IMG/VR virus record: IMGVR_UViG_2657245430_000003
Direction: 5' to 3' (one strand)
DNA: 36,167 bases
From: a virus
Lineage: Duplodnaviria > Heunggongvirae > Uroviricota > Caudoviricetes
Notes under the pieces: model-generated
Seen by the model: only the letters and a program-made list of their open reading frames with translations
Told to the model about the DNA's origin: nothing
Databases searched by the model: none
Position numbers and translations under genes: made by a program
Shown: positions 21,287 to 35,356 of the stretch, one piece after another
Position numbering within the stretch: the stretch's first letter is position 1
How the letters are laid out: each line of letters opens with the position of its first letter

Positions 21287-21297
21287 NNNNNNNNNNN

Positions 21298-22420: not shown

Positions 22421-24985
22421 ATGGGTAAAGGCAGCAGTAAGGGGCATACCCCGCGCGAAGCGAAGGACAACCTGAAATCCACGCAGTTGCTGAGTGTGAT
22501 TGATGCCATCAGCGAAGGGCCGGTTGACGGTCCGGTGGATGGATTAAAAAGCGTGCTGCTGAACGGTACGCCGGTCCTGGACAGCGAGGGGAAGACAAAC
22601 TTTTCCGGTGTTACGGTGGTGTTCCGTGCAGGTGAGCAGGAGCAGACACCGCCGGAGGGTTTTGAATCCTCCGGCTCCGAGACGGTGCTGGGTACGGAAG
22701 TGAAATATGACACGCCGATCACCCGGACCATCACGTCGGCAAACATCGACCGTCTGCGCCTGACCTTCGGTGTGCAGGCACTGGTGGAAACCACCTCAAA
22801 GGGTGACCGGAATCCGTCGGAAGTCCGCCTGCTGGTTCAGATACAGCGTAACGGTGGCTGGGTGACGGAAAAAGACATCACCATTAAGGGCAAAACCACC
22901 TCGCAGTATCTGGCCTCGGTGGTGGTGGATAACCTGCCGCCGCGCCCGTTTAATATCCGGATGCGCAGAATGACGCCGGACAGCACCACAGACCAGCTGC
23001 AGAACAAAACGCTCTGGTCGTCATACACCGAAATCATCGATGTGAAACAGTGCTACCCGAACACGGCGCTGGTCGGCGTGCAGGTGGATTCAGAGCAGTT
23101 CGGTAACCAGCAGGTGAGTCGCAATTATCATCTTCGCGGGCGCATTCTGCAGGTGCCGTCGAACTATAACCCGCAGACGCGGCAATACAGCGGTATCTGG
23201 GACGGAACGCTTAAGCCAGCATACAGCAACAACATGGCCTGGTGTCTGTGGGACATGCTCACTCATCCGCGCTACGGCATGGGGAAACGTCTTGGTGCGG
23301 CAGATGTGGATAAATGGGCGCTGTATGTCATCGGCCAGTACTGCGACCAGTCAGTGACGGACGGATTTGGCGGCACGGAGCCGCGCATCACCTGTAACTC
23401 TTACCTGACCACACAGCGTAAGGCGTGGGATGTTCTCAGTGATTTCTGCTCGGCGATGCGCTGTATGCCGGTATGGAACGGACAGATGCTGACGTTCGTG
23501 CAGGACCGACCGTCGGATAAGGTGTGGACCTATAACCGCAGTAATGTGGTGATGCCGGATGATGGCGCGCCGTTCCGCTACAGTTTCAGCGCCCTGAAAG
23601 ACCGCCATAATGCCGTTGAGGTGAACTGGATTGACCCAGATAACGGCTGGGAGACGGCGACAGAGCTTGTGGAGGATACGCAGGCCATTGCCCGTTACGG
23701 TCGTAATGTCACGAAGATGGATGCCTTTGGCTGTACCAGCCGGGGGCAGGCACACCGAGCCGGGCTGTGGCTGATTAAAACGGAACTGCTGGAAACGCAG
23801 ACCGTGGACTTCAGCGTGGGCGCAGAAGGGCTTCGCCATGTACCGGGTGATGTCATTGAAATCTGCGATGATGATTATGCCGGTATCAGCACCGGTGGTC
23901 GCGTACTGGCGGTGAACAGCCAGACCCGGACGCTGACGCTCGACCGTGAAATCACGCTGCCGTCCTCCGGTACCACGCTGATAAGCCTGGTTGACGGAAG
24001 TGGCAATCCGGTCAGCGTGGAGGTCCAGTCCGTCACCGACGGCGTGAAGGTGAAAGTGAGCCGGGTTCCTGACGGCGTTGCAGAATACAGCGTGTGGGGG
24101 CTGAAGCTGCCGACGCTGCGCCAGCGTCTGTTCCGCTGCGTGAGTATCCGTGAGAACGACGACGGCACGTATGCCATCACCGCCGTGCAGCATGTGCCGG
24201 AAAAAGAGGCCATCGTGGATAACGGGGCACACTTTGACGGTGACCGGCGCGGCACGGTGAATGGTGTCACGCCGCCAGCGGTGCAGCATCTGACCGCCGA
24301 AGTCACCGCAGACAGCGGGGAATATCAGGTGCTGGCGCGATGGGACACGCCGAAGGTGGTGAAGGGTGTGAGCTTCCTGCTTCGCCTGACCGTGGCAGCG
24401 GACGACGGCAGTGAGCGGCTGGTCAGCACAGCCAGGACGACGGAAACCACATACCGCTTCAGGCAGCTGGCGCTGGGGAATTACAGTCTGACAGTCCGGG
24501 CGGTAAATGCCCGGGGGCAGCAGGGCGATCCGGCGTCGGTATCGTTCCGGATTGCGGCACCGGCAGCGCCTGTCACTATTGAACTGATACCGGGGTATTT
24601 TCAGATAACGGCGGTCCCGAAACTGGCTGTATATGACCCGACGGTGCAGTTTGAGTTCTGGTTTTCGGAAAAGCGGATTGCGGATATCAGGCAGGTTGAA
24701 ACCAGCGCCCGCTATCTTGGCACGGCGCTGTACTGGATAGCCGCCAGTATCAATATCAGGCCGGGCCATGATTATTATTTTTACGTTCGCAGTGTGAACA
24801 CCGTTGGCAAATCGGCATTTGTGGAGGCCATCGGTCGGGCGAGCGATGATGCAGAAGGTTATCTGAATTTTTATAAAGGGTTGATCAATAAAACGCATCT
24901 CGGCAAGGAGTTGTGGACGCAGATTGATAACGGTCAGCTTGCGCCGGACCTGACTGAAATCAGGACGTCCATTACGAATGTCAGC
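22421..24985 (+). CDS. J: J protein, N-terminal about 855 aa, truncated at the N at 24986
   Basis: Longest continuous J segment. Ends ...[12 protein letters not shown] at the join. Confidence 0.85.
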
Positions 24986-24986
24986 N

Positions 24987-26424
24987 GGCTGGGAGACGGC
25001 GACAGAGCTTGTGGAGGATACGCAGGCCATTGTCCGTTACGGTCGTAACGTCACGAAGATGGATGCCTTTGGCTGTACCAGCCGGGGGCAGGCACACCGC
25101 GCCGGGCTGTGGCTGATTAAAACGGAACTGCTGGAGACGCAGACCGTGGATTTCAGCGTGGGTGCTGAAGGGCTTCGTCATGTACCGGGCGATGTCATTG
25201 AAATCTGCGATGATGACTATGCCGGTATCCGCACCGGCGGGCGCGTGCTGGCGGTGAACAGCCAGACCCGGACGCTGACGCTCGACCGTGAAATCACGCT
25301 GCCGTCCTCCGGTACCACGCTGATAAGCCTGGTTGACGGAAGTGGCAATCCGGTCAGCGTGGAGGTCCAGTCCGTCACCGACGGCGTGAAGGTGAAAGTG
25401 AGCCGGGTTCCTGACGGCGTTGCAGAATACAGCGTGTGGGGGCTGAAGCTGCCGACGCTGCACCAGCGATTGTTCCGCTGCGTGAGTATCCGTGAGAACG
25501 ACGACGGCACGTATGCCATCACCGCCGTGCAGCATGTGCCGGAAAAAGAAGCCATCGTGGATAACGGGGCGCACTTTGACGGCGACCAGAGCGGCACGGT
25601 GAATGGTGTCACGCCGCCAGCGGTGCAGCACCTGACTGCCGAAGTCACCGCAGACAGCGGGGAATATCAGGTGCTGGCGCGATGGGACACGCCGAAGGTG
25701 GTGAAGGGTGTGAGCTTCCTGCTTCGCCTGACCGTGGCAGCGGACGACGGCAGTGAGCGGCTGGTCAGCACAGCCAGGACGACGGAAACCACATACCGCT
25801 TCAGGCAGCTGGCGCTGGGGAATTACAGTCTGACAGTCCGGGCGGTAAATGCCCGGGGGCAGCAGGGCGATCCGGCGTCGGTATCGTTCCGGATTGCCGC
25901 ACCGGCAGCGCTGTCGCGGATTGAGCTGACGCCGGGCTATTTTCAGATAACCGCCACGCCGCATCTTGCGGTTTATGATCCGACGGTACAGTTTGAGTTC
26001 TGGTTCTCGGAAAAGCGGATTGCGGATATCAGGCAGGTTGAAACCACAGCACGCTATCTTGGCACGGCGCTGTACTGGATAGCCGCCAGTATCAATATCA
26101 AACCGGGCCATGATTATTACTTTTATATCCGCAGTGTGAACACCGTTGGCAAATCGGCATTCGTGGAGGCTGTTGGTCAGCCGAGTGATGATGCATCCGG
26201 TTATCTGGATTTTTTCAAAGGCGAGATAGGGAAAACCCATCTGGCTCAGGAGCTGTGGACGCAGATTGATAACGGTCAGCTTGCGCCTGACCTGGCTGAA
26301 ATCAGGACGTCCATTACGGATGTCAGCAATGAAATCACGCAGACCGTCAATAAGAAACTGGAAGACCAGAGTGCGGCAATTCAGCAGATACAGAAGGTTC
26401 AGGTTGATACAAATAATAACCTGA
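24987..26424 (+). CDS. J: J protein internal fragment (lambda J about residue 405 to 880), bounded by Ns on both sides
   Basis: [29 protein letters not shown] ... [11 protein letters not shown]. It re-covers J sequence already present at 23640-24985, with substitutions. Confidence 0.75.
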
Positions 26425-26425
26425 N

Positions 26426-27902
26426 CAGCACGGCCCGGACGACGGAAACCACTTACCGCTTCACACAACTGGCGCTGGGGAACTACAGGCTGACAGTCCG
26501 GGCAGTAAATGCGTGGGGGCAGCAGGGCGATCCGGCGTCGGTATCGTTCCGGATTGCGGCACCGGCAGCGCCTGTCACTATTGAACTGATACCGGGGTAT
26601 TTTCAGATAACGGCGGTCCCGAAACTGGCTGTATATGACCCGACGGTGCAGTTTGAGTTCTGGTTTTCGGAAAAGCGGATTGCGGATATCAGGCAGGTTG
26701 AAACCACAGCACGCTATCTTGGCACGGCGCTGTACTGGATAGCCGCCAGTATCAATATCAAACCGGGCCATGATTATTACTTTTATATCCGCAGTGTGAA
26801 CACCGTTGGCAAATCGGCATTCGTGGAGGCTGTTGGTCAGCCGAGTGATGATGCATCCGGTTATCTGGATTTTTTCAAAGGCGAGATAGGGAAAACCCAT
26901 CTGGCTCAGGAGCTGTGGACGCAGATTGATAACGGTCAGCTTGCGCCGGACCTGACTGAAATCAGGACGTCCATTACGAATGTCAGCAATGAAATCACGC
27001 AAACCGTCAATAAAAAACTGGAAAATCAGAGTGCTGCAATCCAGCAGATACAGAAAGTTCAGGTTGATACAAATAATAACCTGAACAGCATGTGGGCTGT
27101 GAAGCTGCAACAGATGAAGGACGGACGCCTTTATATTGCGGGTATCGGTGCCGGTATTGAGAATACGCCAGCAGGAATGCAGAGTCAGGTGCTGCTGGCG
27201 GCAGACAGGATTGCGATGATTAATCCTGCGAATGGCAACACAAAGCCGATGTTTGTTGGTCAGGGCGATCAGATATTCATGAACGACGTGTTCCTGAAAT
27301 GCCTGACGGCTCCGACCATTACCAGCGGCGGTAATCCTCCGGCATTTTCCCTGACACCTGGCGGACGGCTGACGGCGAAAAATGCCGATATCAGCGGTAA
27401 CGTGAACGCGAACTCCGGGACGCTCAACAACGTCACGATTAATAAGAACTGTCGGGTTCTGGGAAAATTGTCCGCGAACCAGATTGAAGGCGATCTCGTT
27501 AAAACAGTGGGCAAACCTTTCCCACGGGACTCCCGGGCACCGGAGAGGTGGCCATCAGGGACCATTACCGTCAGGGTTTATGACGATCAGCCGTTTGATC
27601 GGCAAATTGTTATTCCCGCGGTGGCGTTTCGCGGTGCTAAACATGAGCGGAAGAATAACAATATTTATTCGTCATGCCGCCTGATAGTGAAGAAAAACGG
27701 TGCTGAAATTTATAACCGAACGACCCTGGATAATACGCTGATATATACGGGTGTTATTGATATGCCTGCCGGTCACGGTCACATGACGCTGGAGTTTTCT
27801 GTATCGGCATGGCTGGTAAATGGCTGGTATCCCACAGCAAGTATCAGCGATTTGCTGGTTGTGGTGATGAAGAAAGCCACTGCAGGCATCACGATTAGCT
27901 GA
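26426..27902 (+). CDS. J: J protein C-terminal fragment (receptor-binding region, variant 1) ending at the native stop
   Basis: [33 protein letters not shown]... to ...[14 protein letters not shown]. The C-terminal roughly 150 aa differ from the variant at 29191-31040 and from lambda. Confidence 0.8.
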
Positions 27903-27921
27903 ATTTTATAACCCAGATACG

Positions 27922-27948
27922 GGCACCAGAAATGGTGCCTTTTTTATT
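27922..27948 (+). terminator. intrinsic terminator after J (variant 1)
   Basis: GGCACC-AGAAAT-GGTGCC stem-loop followed by TTTTTTATT. Confidence 0.7.
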
Positions 27949-27969
27949 GCAGAAAAGCGAGAGGTAATT

Positions 27970-28569
27970 ATGCGTAAAGTTTGTGCAGCCATTTTGTCCG
28001 CAGCCATTTGCCTGGCCGTATCCGGTGCGCCTGCATGGGCGTCTGAACATCAGTCCACGCTGAGCGCCGGGTATCTTCAGACCCATACTGATATGCCAGG
28101 CAGCGATGACCTGAAGGGCATTAACGTGAAATACCGTTATGAGTTTACGGACACGCTGGGGCTGATTACGTCATTCAGTTATGCCAACGCTGAAGATGAG
28201 CAAAAAACGCATTACAGCGATACCCGCTGGCATGAGGATTCCGTGCGTAACCGCTGGTTCAGCGTGATGGCGGGGCCGTCTGTGCGCGTGAATGAATGGT
28301 TCAGCGCGTATGCGATGGCGGGCGTGGCTTACAGCCGTGTGTCGACCTTCTCCGGGGATTATCTCCGCGTAACTGACAACAAGGGGAAAACGCACGATGT
28401 GCTGACCGGAAGTGATGGCGGTCGCCACAGCAACACGTCTCTGGCGTGGGGGGCTGGCGTGCAGTTTAACCCGACCGAATCCGTGGCCATTGACCTTGCT
28501 TATGAAGGTTCCGGCAGTGGTGACTGGCGCACTGACGGTTTCATCGTGGGTGTCGGTTATAAATTCTGA
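27970..28569 (+). CDS. lom: Lom-family (Ail/Lom/OmpX) outer-membrane beta-barrel protein
   Basis: 199 aa with a signal peptide (MRKVCAAILSAAICLAVSGAPAWA). The C-terminus ...AYEGSGSGDWRTDGFIVGVGYKF is identical to the lambda Lom C-terminus from memory. Position after J is as in lambda. Confidence 0.9.
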   Translation: MRKVCAAILSAAICLAVSGAPAWASEHQSTLSAGYLQTHTDMPGSDDLKGINVKYRYEFTDTLGLITSFSYANAEDEQKTHYSDTRWHEDSVRNRWFSVMAGPSVRVNEWFSAYAMAGVAYSRVSTFSGDYLRVTDNKGKTHDVLTGSDGGRHSNTSLAWGAGVQFNPTESVAIDLAYEGSGSGDWRTDGFIVGVGYKF

Positions 28570-28595
28570 TTAGCCAGGTAACACAGTGTTATGAC

Positions 28596-28622
28596 AGCCC
28601 GCCGGTTCAGGCGGGCTTTTTT
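28596..28622 (+). terminator. intrinsic terminator after lom
   Basis: AGCCCGCC-GGTTCA-GGCGGGCT stem followed by a run of 6 T. Confidence 0.8.
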
Positions 28623-28633
28623 GTGGGGTGAAT

Positions 28634-28960
28634 ATGGCAGTAAAGATTTCAGGTGTACTGAAAGATGGGGCGGGTAAACCTGTCGTAAATTGTGCGATTG
28701 AACTGCGGGCCAGAAGAACCAGTCCGACCGTTGTGGCACACGTTGTTGCCACTTGCGTGACGGACAATAACGGTGCTTATGTGATTGAGGCTGAGCCGGG
28801 GTATTACGAGGTTGCGCTTCACTGTAACGGCTGGCAGCCAACCCGTGTCGGGGATATTGATGTGGCACCGACTGATGCACCGGGGACACTGAACGCGTTT
28901 CTGAATGCACCAAAGGATGGTGATTTACGTCCGGAGGTGATGAAGTGTCAGCGCCAGTGA
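28634..28960 (+). CDS. short protein with a side-tail-fibre (Stf) N-terminal-like start, 108 aa, not followed by a fibre shaft
   Basis: [12 protein letters not shown](A/T)GKPV.NC.I.L.A.R matches the Stf N-terminus at 31692. It diverges in the middle and only ends with a different reading at the C-terminus (RPEVMKCQRQ*), the DNA match to stf breaking off after CGTCCGGAGG. An IS21-family transposase start lies 87 nt downstream. Confidence 0.6.
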   Translation: MAVKISGVLKDGAGKPVVNCAIELRARRTSPTVVAHVVATCVTDNNGAYVIEAEPGYYEVALHCNGWQPTRVGDIDVAPTDAPGTLNAFLNAPKDGDLRPEVMKCQRQ

Positions 28961-29046
28961 TATAAGACGGTAATTCGCCATTTGGATTGTCCGCTCCACC
29001 CAACATGTTGTTTCCTTAAGGTTCTCACACCAGAAAGGACATCAAC

Positions 29047-29189
29047 ATGCTGAGCAGAGAGGACTTTTACATGATAAAGCAAATGCGCCAGCAGGGCGCG
29101 TACATCGTCGATATTGCGACTCAGATTGGTTGCTCTGAACGGACGGTCAGACGCTACCTCAAATACCCTGAACCGCCAGCCAGAAAGAC
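29047..29189 (+). mobile_element. IS21-family transposase (IstA) 5' fragment, cut by the N at 29190
   Basis: MLSREDFYMIKQMRQQGAYIVDIATQIGCSERTVRRYLKYPEPPARK, the helix-turn-helix N-terminus typical of IS21-family IstA. The IS left end probably lies between 28961 and 29046 but I cannot place the terminal inverted repeat. Confidence 0.7.
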
Positions 29190-29190
29190 N

Positions 29191-31040
29191 CTGACGGCGT
29201 TGCAGAATACAGCGTGTGGGGGCTGAAGCTGCCGACGCTGCGCCAGCGTCTGTTCCGCTGCGTGAGTATCCGTGAGAACGACGACGGCACGTATGCCATC
29301 ACCGCCGTGCAGCATGTGCCGGAAAAAGAGGCCATCGTGGATAACGGGGCACACTTTGACGGTGACCGGCGCGGCACGGTGAATGGTGTCACGCCGCCAG
29401 CGGTGCAGCATCTGACCGCCGAAGTCACCGCAGACAGCGGGGAATATCAGGTGCTGGCGCGATGGGACACGCCGAAGGTGGTGAAGGGTGTGAGCTTCCT
29501 GCTTCGCCTGACCGTGGCAGCGGACGACGGCAGTGAGCGGCTGGTCAGCACAGCCAGGACGACGGAAACCACATACCGCTTCAGGCAGCTGGCGCTGGGG
29601 AATTACAGTCTGACAGTCCGGGCGGTAAATGCCCGGGGGCAGCAGGGCGATCCGGCGTCGGTATCGTTCCGGATTGCGGCACCGGCAGCGCCTGTCACTA
29701 TTGAACTGATACCGGGGTATTTTCAGATAACGGCGGTCCCGAAACTGGCTGTATATGACCCGACGGTGCAGTTTGAGTTCTGGTTTTCGGAAAAGCGGAT
29801 TGCGGATATCAGGCAGGTTGAAACCAGCGCCCGCTATCTTGGCACGGCGCTGTACTGGATAGCCGCCAGTATCAATATCAGGCCGGGCCATGATTATTAT
29901 TTTTACGTTCGCAGTGTGAACACCGTTGGCAAATCGGCATTTGTGGAGGCCATCGGTCGGGCGAGCGATGATGCAGAAGGTTATCTGAATTTTTATAAAG
30001 GGTTGATCAATAAAACGCATCTCGGCAAGGAGTTGTGGACGCAGATTGATAACGGTCAGCTTGCGCCTGACCTGGCTGAAATCAGGACGTCCATTACGGA
30101 TGTCAGCAATGAAATCACGCAGACCGTCAATAAGAAACTGGAAGACCAGAGTGCGGCAATTCAGCAGATACAGAAGGTTCAGGTTGATACAAATAATAAC
30201 CTGAACAGCATGTGGGCTGTGAAGCTGCAGCAGATGCAGGACGGACGCCTTTATATCGCGGGTATTGGTGCCGGTATTGAGAACACCCCTGACGGCATGC
30301 AGAGTCAGGTGCTGCTGGCGGCGGACAGGATTGCGATGGTTAATCCTGCGAATGGCAACACAAAACCGATGTTTGTTGGTCAGGGCGATCAGATATTCAT
30401 GAACGACGTGTTCCTGAAACGCCTGACGGCCCCCACCATTACCAGCGGTGGAAATCCATCGGCATTTTCCCTGACTCCGGACGGAAAGCTGACCGCTAAA
30501 AATGCGGATATCAGTGGCAGTGTGAATGCGAACGCCGGGACGCTCAACAATGTCACGGTAAATGAAAACTGTACGATTAAGGGCATGCTGGAGGCGACTC
30601 AGGTCAGAGGTGACTTCGTTAAAGCTGTATCCAAATCATTTCCGAAACAGGCTGGTACGTGGGGTAACACGGAAACACCAAACGGGACGGTTACAGTCAC
30701 CATAAGCGATGATCATAACTTTGACCGCCAGATTATTATTCCGCCCATTATTTTTAACGGTATAGCGTATGACGATCCGGGGAGCGGAAATAACCCAGGA
30801 GGCACGCGATACACGGGTTATGGTTTTGAAGTTCGCAAAAACGGCGTATTAATCGCATCCAGAGAAACTAAAGGTGCCATTCCCGGTAGTTACAGTGCAG
30901 TTATTGATATGCCTAGTGGTGGTGGTAGCGTCACTCTGGAGTTTAAGATTTTCCAGAAAGGCAATCAGGGGGCAGGCAATATCACCGACTGTACGGTGAT
31001 TGTGACCAAAAAAGCGGCTTCCGGCATCAGTATTCGTTGA
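29191..31040 (+). CDS. J: J protein C-terminal fragment (lambda J about residue 545 to end; receptor-binding region, variant 2)
   Basis: ..[29 protein letters not shown]... to ...[15 protein letters not shown]. The C-terminal domain differs from variant 1 (26426-27902) and from lambda. Confidence 0.85.
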
Positions 31041-31110: not shown

Positions 31111-31626
31111 ATGCGTAAAGTTTGTGCAGCCATTTTGTCCGCAGCCATTTGCCTGGCCGTATCCGGTGCGCCTGCATGGGCGTCTGAACATCAGTCCACG
31201 CTGAGCGCGGGGTATCTTCATGCCCGGACCAACGTTCCCGGCAGTGATGATCTGAACGGGATTAACGTGAAATACCGTTATGAGTTTACGGATACGCTGG
31301 GGCTGGTGACGTCATTCAGCTATGCAGGAGACAAGAATCGCCAGCTGACCCGTTACAGCGATACCCGCTGGCATGAAGATTCCGTGCGTAACCGCTGGTT
31401 CAGCGTGATGGCGGGGCCGTCTGTGCGCGTGAATGAATGGTTCAGCGCGTATGCGATGGCGGGTGTGGCTTACAGCCGTGTGTCGACTTTTTCCGGGGAT
31501 TATATCCGCGTAACTGACAATAAGGGGAAAACGCACGATGTGCTGACCGGAAGTGATGACGGTCGCCACAGCAACACGTCTCTGGCGCACTGACGGTTTC
31601 ATCGTGGGTGTCGGTTATAAATTCTG
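31111..31626 (+). pseudogene. lom: lom, disrupted by an 83-bp internal deletion causing frameshift and a premature stop at 31593
   Basis: Matches the intact lom at 27970-28569 up to ...HSNTSLA, then jumps to the last 37 bp. The missing 83 bp are flanked in the intact copy by the direct repeat CTGGCG. Confidence 0.8.
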
Positions 31627-31653: not shown

Positions 31654-31680
31654 AGCCCGCCGGTTCAGGCGGGCTTTTTT
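31654..31680 (+). terminator. intrinsic terminator after lom (second copy)
   Basis: Same AGCCCGCC-GGTTCA-GGCGGGCT hairpin plus T-run as at 28596. Confidence 0.8.
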
Positions 31681-31691
31681 GTGGGGTGAAT

Positions 31692-34600
31692 ATGGCAGTA
31701 AAGATTTCAGGTGTACTGAAAGACGGCACAGGAAAACCGGTACAGAACTGCACAATCCAGCTGAAAGCAAAACGTAACAGCACCACGGTGGTGGTGAACA
31801 CGCTGGCCTCAGAAAATCCGGATGAAGCCGGGCGTTACAGCATGGACGTTGAGTACGGTCAGTACAGCGTTATTCTGTTGGTGGAAGGATTCCCGCCGTC
31901 ACATGCCGGGACCATCACCGTGTATGAAGATTCCCGACCCGGTACGCTGAATGATTTTCTCGGTGCCATGACGGAGGATGATGCCCGTCCGGAGGCACTG
32001 CGCCGTTTTGAGCTGATGGTGGAAGAGGTGGCGCGTAACGCGTCCGCGGTGGCACAGAACACGGCAGCCGCGAAGAAATCAGCCAGCGATGCCAGCACAT
32101 CAGCCCGTGAGGCGGCAACCCATGCGACTGATGCTGCAGATTCAGCACGTGCAGCCAGCACGTCAGCCGGACAGGCCGCTTCGTCGGCTCAGTCAGCGTC
32201 TTCCAGCGCAGGAACGGCATCAACAAAGGCCACTGAAGCCTCAAAAAGTGCTGCCGCTGCAGAGTCCTCAAAAAGCGCGGCGGCTACCAGTGCCGGTGCG
32301 GCGAAAACGTTAGAAACGAATGCGGCAGCGTCACAACAATCAGCAGCCACTTCTGCATCCACCGCGACCACGAAAGCGTCAGAAGCTGCCACCTCAGCCC
32401 GGGATGCGTCGGCTTCAAAAGAGGCGGCAAAATCATCAGAAACGAACGCATCATCAAGCGCCAGTAGCGCAGCTTCCTCGGCGACGGCGGCTGCAAATTC
32501 TGCGAAGGCGGCCAAAACGTCCGAGACGAACGCCAGGTCTTCTGAAACGGCAGCGGGACAGAGTGCCTCAGCTGCGGCAGGCTCAAAAACAGCGGCTGCG
32601 TCGTCTGCCAGCGCCGCGTCAACAAGTGCCGGGCAGGCCTCAGCCAGTGCCACCGCCGCCGGAAAATCGGCAGAAAGCGCCGCATCATCCGCTTCAACAG
32701 CCACAACGAAGGCTGGCGAAGCCACTGAGCAGGCCACGGCAGCAGCGAGGTCAGCTTCCGCAGCGAAGACATCCGAAACGAACGCGAAAGCGTCGGAAAC
32801 CCGTGCAGAATCCTCAAAAACGGCTGCCGCATCGTCCGCCAGTTCGGCGGCGTCATCGGCATCATCGGCGTCTGCTTCAAAAGATGAGGCGACCAGACAG
32901 GCGTCAGCAGCGAAGGGCAGCGCCACGACGGCATCCACGAAGGCGACAGAGGCTGCTGGTAGTGCGACGGCAGCAGCTCAGAGCAAAAGTACGGCGGAAT
33001 CTGCAGCAACGCGCGCTGAGACAGCGGCAAAACGGGCAGAGGATATTGCATCCGCCGTGGCGCTTGAGGATGCGAGCACGACGAAAAAGGGGATAGTACA
33101 GCTCAGTAGTGCGACTAACAGCACTTCCGAGTCACTGGCGGCAACACCAAAAGCCGTTAAGGCCGCGTATGACCTGGCTAACGGGAAATACACCGCACAG
33201 GATGCAACGACAGCACAGAAAGGGATAATCCAGCTAAGCAGCGCGACCAACAGCACGTCTGAAACGCTGGCGGCAACGCCAAAGGCAGTAAAAGCAGCCA
33301 ATGACAATGCTGAGAAACGTCTGCAGAAAGATCAGAACGGTGCGGATATCCCTGGCAAAGACACCTTTACGAAAAATATTGGTGCCTGCCGTGCCTTCGG
33401 TGGGTCAGTAAGCACAACAACAGGAAACTGGACGACTGCACAGTTTATCGAGTGGCTGGATTCTCAGGGAGCATTTAACCATCCATACTGGATGTGCAAG
33501 GGTTCCTGGTCTTATGGCAATAATAAAATCATTACTGATACTGGCTGCGGTAATATTCATCTCGCCGGAGCTGTCATTGAAGTAATGGGGATAAAGTCAG
33601 CGATGACGATCCGCATTACCACTCCGACCACATCCAGCGGTGGCGGAACAACCAACGCCCAGTTTACCTATATTAATCACGGAACAGATTATTCACCTGG
33701 CTGGCGAAGGGACTATAACTCCAGAAATAAGCCAACGGCATCAGAGATCGGGGCGCTACCGTCAGGTGGAACAGCAGTATCATCAGTTAATCTGGCTTCA
33801 AAAGGTCGGGTAGCCGCGCTGACAGACAATACGCAGGGGGCAGCAGGTCTTGAGTTATACGAGGTGTATAACAACGGATATCCAACAGCGTATGGAAATA
33901 TCATTCACCTGAAAGGGATGACAGCCGTTGGCGAAGGTGAGTTACTCATCGGCTGGAGTGGTACAAGCGGTGCTCATGCTCCGGCATTTATTCGTTCACG
34001 ACGGGATACGACCGACGCAAACTGGTCGCCGTGGGCGCAGCTTTACACCTCGGCTCATCCTCCTGCAGAGTTTTATCCAGTCGGTGCACCAATCCCGTGG
34101 CCATCAGATACCGTTCCGTCTGGTTATGCCCTGATGCAGGGGCAGACTTTTGACAAATCTGCTTACCCGAAACTTGCAGCCGCTTATCCGTCAGGCGTGA
34201 TCCCTGATATGCGTGGCTGGACGATTAAGGGCAAGCCCGCCAGTGGTCGTGCCGTATTGTCTCAGGAACAGGATGGCATTAAATCGCACACCCACAGCGC
34301 CAGCGCATCCAGTACGGATTTGGGGACGAAAACCACATCGTCGTTTGATTACGGCACTAAATCCACGAATAACACCGGGGCGCATACGCACAGTCTGAGC
34401 GGCTCTACAAGTTCAGCTGGGGCCCACCAACATAGTCAGACTGGGCCCAGAACGAATAGCGGGAGTCAACCTACTGGAATGTTTCCGGCAGGGAGTACTC
34501 AAGTTAGCGGGACTAATCAGGTTGGTATCAGTGGCTCATTAACCAGTGGCACCTCCCAATGGGTAGGTAAATCATCTTCAGAAGGAAACCATACACACTC

Positions 34601-34775
34601 ACTGTCCGGCACAGCAGCATCTGCGGGTGCACACGCGCATACTGTCGGTATTGGTGCTCATACGCACTCTGTTGCGATTGGTTCACATGGACACACCATC
34701 ACCGTTAACGCTGCTGGTAACGCGGAAAACACCGTCAAAAACATCGCATTTAACTATATTGTGAGGCTCGCATAA
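31692..34775 (+). CDS. stf: side tail fibre protein Stf (mosaic)
   Basis: 1027 aa from the ATG at 31692. Lambda-like N-terminus [36 protein letters not shown], a long Ala/Ser/Thr low-complexity shaft, and a C-terminus with GAHTHSLSG / [15 protein letters not shown] His-rich repeats ending ...[18 protein letters not shown] as in lambda Stf. Confidence 0.9.
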
Positions 34776-35356
34776 TGGCATTCAGAATGAGTGAACAAGC
34801 ACGGACCATAAAAATTTATAACCTGCTGGCCGGAACTAATGAATTTATTGGTGAAGGTGACGCATATATTCCGCCTCATACAGGTCTGCCTGCAAACAGT
34901 ACCGATATTGCACCGCCAGATATTCCGGCTGGTTTCGTGGCTGTTTTCAACAGTGATGAGTCATCGTGGCATCTCGTTGAAGATCATCGGGGTAAAACGG
35001 TTTATGACGTGGCTTCCGGCGACGCGTTATTTATTTCTGAACTCGGCTCATTACCGGAAAATGTCACCTGGTTATCCCCGGAAGGGGAGTTTCAGAAGTG
35101 GAACGGCACAGCCTGGGTGAAGGATACGGAAGCAGAAAAACTGTTCCGGATCCGGGAGGCGGAAGAAACAAAAAACAGCCTGATGCAGGTAGCCAGTGAG
35201 CATATAGCGCCGCTTCAGGATGCTGTGGATCTGGAGATCGCAACGGAGAAAGAAACCTTGTTGCTGGAAGCTTGGAAAAAGTATCGGGTGTTGCTGAACC
35301 GTGTTGATACATCAACTGCACCGGATATTGAATGGCCAGTAGCACCTATAGGGTAA
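34775..35356 (+). CDS. tfa: tail fibre assembly protein Tfa
   Basis: 193 aa, [51 protein letters not shown].... Start overlaps the stf stop (TAATG). Confidence 0.9.

Follow-up and report, generated by a model that had tools for sequence, protein, structure and literature searches.

The window analysed here, a stretch of 36,167 nucleotides from the Caudoviricetes record IMGVR_UViG_2657245430_000003, contains an open reading frame (ORF) of 108 amino acids that starts like a side tail fibre protein (Stf) and is followed directly by the start of an IS21-family istA gene. The locus raises the question of whether this ORF is a small tail protein in its own right or what is left of a fibre gene and, in the second case, how the rest was lost. 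A sequence-only reading had offered two answers: either the fibre gene was replaced or truncated by recombination linked to the insertion sequence (IS), or the ORF is a stand-alone J-proximal adaptor protein. The answer that we favour, with a probability of roughly nine in ten, is that the ORF would be a pseudogene of stf in a lambda-type prophage, made by simple transposition of IS21.

The truncated fibre gene and its breakpoint

The ORF runs from an ATG at 28634 to a stop codon at 28958-28960. Its residues 1-104 match the Pfam family PF08400 (phage_tail_N, the prophage tail fibre N-terminal family) with an E-value of 1e-36, over profile positions 1-104 of 134. The domain at the start of the protein and the lom gene immediately upstream are those of a side tail fibre gene; the shaft and the C-terminal receptor-binding region are missing, since the ORF ends at residue 108. 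As with Stf of phage lambda, the remnant lies directly after J and lom, has the same protein start and matches PF08400, but it is cut inside the N-terminal domain and lacks the shaft repeats, the collar and the receptor-binding domain, and neither a tfa nor a DUF4376 gene was found after it within the window. Without shaft, collar and receptor-binding part the product therefore cannot form a fibre and, with 30 positions of the N-terminal domain also gone, stf is a pseudogene. We read the ORF as a remnant of stf and not as a functional member of the side tail fibres.

The window also carries an intact-looking lambda-type stf, at 31686-34775, and comparison with its product gives identity at 18 of the first 20 residues, 23 of the first 30 and 52 of the first 104. 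The likeness that had been noticed in the first 30 or so residues is thus present, but it is not confined to them and continues as far as residue 104. At the DNA level, identity to this second gene is perfect only across 28524-28665, and drops to 41-59% per 39-nt block beyond. The motif CGTCCGGAGG, after which the identity had been said to end, is a small conserved island, and the breakpoint lies 8 nt further on.

The breakpoint is best measured against the true orthologue of the remnant. When the region 27900-29189 was compared by megablast with 5,426 complete E. coli genomes, 30 of them matched from the first base to 28945 and no further, and in all 30 the gene at this place bears the annotation “prophage tail fibre N-terminal domain-containing protein”. 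The best match is enteroinvasive E. coli (EIEC) CFSAN029787 (NZ_CP011416.1, here L001), with 98.5% DNA identity to the window up to 28945, identical residues 1-104 and divergence after ...GTGATGAAG. This places the breakpoint between 28945 and 28946 (...GTGATGAAG|TGTCAGCGCC...). The CFSAN029787 gene (L001 6734-8146) encodes 470 residues, a different and shorter fibre type than the 1028-residue Stf at 31692-34775 of the window. In the four E. coli orthologues examined the protein is 470, 532, 696 or 801 residues long, and each gene is followed by a DUF4376 gene, which we interpret as the gene for tail fibre assembly. Just downstream of the latter, CFSAN029787 carries a frameshifted gene for the type III secretion effector E3 ligase ipaH (L001 8900-10542), a region missing from the corresponding place in the Shigella sonnei genome described below.

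What follows the breakpoint is the left end of IS21, the istA/istB insertion sequence originally reported from plasmid R68.45. All 244 nucleotides of 28946-29189 are identical to copies that carry the annotation “IS21-like element IS21 family transposase” (244/244, E=6e-124), which, together with the PF08400 match, bears out the original description of a short ORF resembling the Stf N-terminus and then an IS21 istA start. Three IS21 copies in mutually unrelated surroundings (L002, L003 and L004; two chromosomes and one virulence plasmid) match the window from exactly base 28946 (TGTCAGCGCCAGTG...), while the DNA upstream of them is unrelated. These full copies are 2130 bp long, encode a 390-residue IstA and a 265-residue IstB, terminate on the right in ...TGGCGTTGACA and are flanked by 4-bp target duplications (CATC, TATA and GTTA). 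The search for terminal inverted repeats that had been suggested as a check was rewarded: the boundary defined by the independent copies begins with 5'-TG, the left repeat TGTCAGCGCCA stands at 28946, and the left and right repeats of the full copies agree at 10 of 11 bases. The ATG of istA, at 29047, is 86 nt past the stop codon of the ORF and 101 nt after the IS end. Codons 1-47 of istA are recognised by DNA identity and by helix-turn-helix hits, the part encoding the DDE domain lying beyond the contig end. The window thus shares with IS21 the left terminus, including TGTCAGCGCCA, and 47 istA codons, but it holds only the left 11% of the element; istB, present in the three full copies, lies outside a contig that ends at IS21 nt 244. 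A minus-strand terminator-like hairpin inside istA (29099-29085) was taken as a chance match to the consensus. As the left terminus begins exactly at 28946, the last four codons of the ORF (CQRQ) and its stop codon are IS DNA.

The same junction in Shigella sonnei

An exact-sequence look-up found the identical 108-residue protein on eight contigs, namely the finished chromosome CP010829.1 and seven contigs of draft assemblies under CX... accessions, and all eight assemblies carry the same stf/IS21 junction. CP010829.1 is the chromosome of S. sonnei FORC_011, and the CX... accession series is attributed to the S. sonnei collection of Holt et al. (PMC5447701), to which we infer that the seven draft contigs belong. 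One of the drafts is 100% identical to the window across its full 618 nt; between the window and FORC_011 there are 5 base differences and one indel within 27900-28998. Most probably, the prophage is of the S. sonnei type and the window comes from S. sonnei. The left junction had no match in the GTDB representative genomes, in which Shigella is probably represented only by E. coli. The seven drafts (L006-L012) stop 31-53 nt into IS21, as expected, since assemblies break at repeats. The contig in the window reaches 244 nt into the element, which probably reflects another assembler or read length.

The eight assemblies bear on the idea of a stand-alone adaptor, consisting of the Stf N-terminal domain alone and placed next to J. 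The ORF is open, its start is plausible, a recognised domain is matched and the sequence is exactly conserved in all eight. Conservation, however, points here to shared ancestry and not to selection, because every one of these assemblies carries the same IS junction. Moreover, the domain breaks off after position 104 of the 134 in the profile, and the IS-free orthologues examined are full fibres of 470-801 residues. An adaptor whose final four codons and stop come from the terminal repeat of IS21 has next to no chance of being the right description, and we reject it on account of this 3' end.

The finished chromosome also shows what lies beyond the point at which the other contigs stop (Table 1, positions in L005). 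IS21 is interrupted after nt 428 by a complete IS600, resumes at the duplicated GTT and ends at nt 1098, where a second, inverted IS600 begins, and the 3' part of stf follows this, with the DUF4376 gene after it at L005 10476-11099. Lost from the locus are IS21 nt 1099-2130, and with them istB, and stf codons 105-248. Unlike a functional IS21, this copy is dead, as its istA is broken by IS600, the element is cut at nt 1098 and istB is absent. Neither end of the deletion is an IS terminus. The sequence-only reading would have been overturned by a finished sequence with an intact stf at this place; the finished S. sonnei FORC_011 genome has the same junction instead.

Contig joins and neighbouring tail genes

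The window does not represent a contiguous genome segment; it consists of seven contig pieces with Ns at the seams. Alignment of a reference prophage to it shows that one lambdoid tail region (L, K, I and J) recurs from piece to piece in overlapping copies. As judged from this alignment, the window is made up of repeat-derived contigs in series, and gene order across the N joins is to be regarded as non-native. Downstream context of the remnant is indeed lost at the N at 29190, as had been stated: the sequence beyond it (29191-30572) aligns to J of CFSAN029787 (L001 4172-5553) and not to IS21 or stf. A search for the native continuation elsewhere in the window found no 3' part of stf, no further IS21 and no IS600. 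Two J-like ORFs, 22421-25048 (875 residues) and 24978-27902 (974 residues), cross the single-N joins at 24986 and 26425, respectively. By their position on the joins, these two ORFs are taken to be assembly chimeras of different J copies and not real genes. ORFs that span N joins in this record should be treated as artefacts in annotation, with the window understood as repeat contigs linked in series.

Such joins, and the chimeric ORFs across them, invite the suspicion that the stf/IS21 junction is itself a misassembly and that the gene is intact in the real genome. However, there is no N within 28634-29189, and the break coincides precisely with base 1 of the IS, unlike that of a random chimera. 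We give this explanation hardly any credence and have rejected it, as the junction recurs in a finished chromosome and in seven independent drafts.

Table 1. Features of the window and, where marked L005, of the corresponding S. sonnei FORC_011 locus
Feature	Position	Strand	Basis or remark
Single Ns	16254, 18723, 24986, 26425, 29190		N positions in the window
Run of 11 Ns	21287-21297		N positions in the window
Piece carrying the stf remnant	26426-29189		3' end of J, lom, hairpin, 108-residue ORF and cut istA frame
lom (Ail/Lom outer-membrane beta-barrel protein, 199 aa)	27970-28569	+	PF06316, E=4e-129, full length; Ail/Lom annotation in orthologous loci
Putative terminator-like GC-rich hairpin and T run, between lom and stf	28596-28617	+	Consensus scan
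stf remnant, codons 1-104, incomplete N-terminal domain	28634-28945	+	PF08400 1-104/134; residues 1-104 as in the CFSAN029787 orthologue; DNA match ends at 28945
IS-encoded ORF tail, codons 105-108 (CQRQ) and TGA stop	28946-28960	+	Overlaps the IS21 left inverted repeat TGTCAGCGCCA (28946-28956)
IS21 left end, nt 1-244 of 2130 bp, cut at the contig end	28946-29189	+	100% identity to annotated IS21
istA codons 1-47 (transposase helix-turn-helix part), incomplete	29047-29189	+	Pfam HTH_23 and HTH_7; annotated istA start in L002-L004
Single N between two unrelated contigs	29190		3' side is a mid-J fragment of another prophage copy
FORC_011 stf codons 1-104	L005 6001-6312		
FORC_011 IS21 nt 1-428	L005 6313-6740		
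FORC_011 complete IS600, 1262 bp	L005 6741-8002		GTT duplication on its flanks
FORC_011 IS21 to nt 1098	L005 8003-8677		Picks up again near nt 426, at the GTT duplication
FORC_011 second IS600, inverted	L005 8678-9854		Without 85 nt at its inner end
FORC_011 stf 3' remnant and DUF4376 gene	L005 9855 onward		stf continues from codon 249 of the 470-residue orthologue

The arrangement with lom upstream of stf is common to lambda and the window locus, and the hairpin between the two genes is identical in sequence to 31654-31675, 5' of the intact stf. A second copy of lom, at 31111-31593, has lost 83 nt internally, between direct repeats of CTGGCG (the segment that occupies 28441-28523 in the first copy), and its frameshifted ORF is 160 residues long instead of 199. 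The intact-looking Stf that follows (1029 residues from a GTG, or 1028 from the ATG at 31692) carries PF08400, fibre-repeat and collar domains and is succeeded by a tail fibre assembly ORF of 193 residues, the module extending over 31686-35356. With this Stf apparently intact and its assembly ORF in place, one prophage copy in the source genome therefore appears to keep its side fibre module.

Route of the inactivation and its significance

The events at the locus can be reconstructed as follows. The starting point would have been a lambda-type prophage with the usual J-lom-stf-tfa tail module, in which IS21 would have inserted by transposition just behind codon 104 of stf, its left end facing the start of the gene. 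Translation from the stf start would then run 13 nt into the left terminal repeat of the IS, add Cys-Gln-Arg-Gln and stop, yielding a 108-residue fragment with an incomplete N-terminal domain. The seeming IS21 fragment in the window is a product of assembly, in which the contig halts within a repetitive element and an N then connects it with an unrelated piece of J. In the FORC_011 relative, IS600 would later have hit IS21 at nt 428, and further IS600 activity and deletion would have eroded the site. Of the earlier proposal that the fibre gene was replaced or truncated by IS-linked recombination, truncation linked to the IS therefore stands; transposition is favoured over recombination or gene replacement because the left terminal repeat of IS21 starts exactly at the break. 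The event itself is thus likely to have been a simple, one-step transposition into stf.

Simple transposition predicts a right junction of the form ...GTGGCGTTGACA-GAAG-CGCTTTGAGG, that is, the IS21 end, the 4-bp duplication and the continuation of stf. This junction and its GAAG duplication are absent from the window, and the region is deleted in FORC_011. With the GAAG duplication fixed, no place covering the junction was found in the complete E. coli genomes, and with a target duplication of 0-8 nt allowed there was no match in the GTDB representatives or the JGI metagenomes. These are the sequences that would distinguish a direct insertion from a longer route, in which IS21 first inserted further downstream in or beyond stf and an adjacent deletion, by intramolecular transposition, then brought its left terminus to codon 104. 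Such a deletion would likewise leave the junction exactly at the IS terminus, and FORC_011 does show further deletions at the stf locus. However, the route needs an extra step that no observation requires, and the resumption of stf at codon 249 past the second IS600 is also what a simple insertion with IS600-associated loss would give. We consider this route unlikely; were it correct, it would lead to the same pseudogene by a different path.

Returning to simple transposition, the loss of stf can be compared with two known situations. Side tail fibres are dispensable for lambda, as in lambda PaPa, the laboratory strain in which, as Hendrix and Duda are said to have described in 1992, a frameshift splits stf into two ORFs. 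The two cases are alike in that a lesion behind the N-terminal part inactivates the side tail fibre gene and leaves a short 5' ORF, but they differ in that lambda PaPa has a single-base frameshift in a viable phage, whereas the present locus has an IS insertion and a deletion in a resident prophage. Shigella genomes, in turn, are known for IS expansion (IS1, IS2, IS600, IS21 and others like them) and for IS-driven pseudogenes. The locus resembles these in its IS within a coding gene, its nested IS600 and the adjacent deletion in S. sonnei, and nothing sets the stf/IS21 case apart from this general pattern. Given the dispensability of side tail fibres in lambda and the IS expansion of Shigella, the natural reading is that the loss was probably selectively neutral decay of a cryptic prophage.

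It is conceivable, though very unlikely, that the 108-residue fragment may be made from the prophage late operon and bind the J tail tip or the tail of a co-resident phage. If so, the fragment would act as a decoy or, in a dominant-negative manner, prevent side fibres from attaching to other lambdoid phages in the same cell.

The stf/IS21 junction is already known, in the sense that it is present in public finished and draft genomes of S. sonnei. For annotation, the 108-residue ORF should be labelled an IS21-disrupted stf pseudogene and not a small tail protein. As it is common to all eight assemblies found, the junction might serve as a lineage marker. Biologically, the finding carries little weight: it would be ordinary prophage decay, one more case of insertion sequences eroding the cryptic prophages of Shigella.
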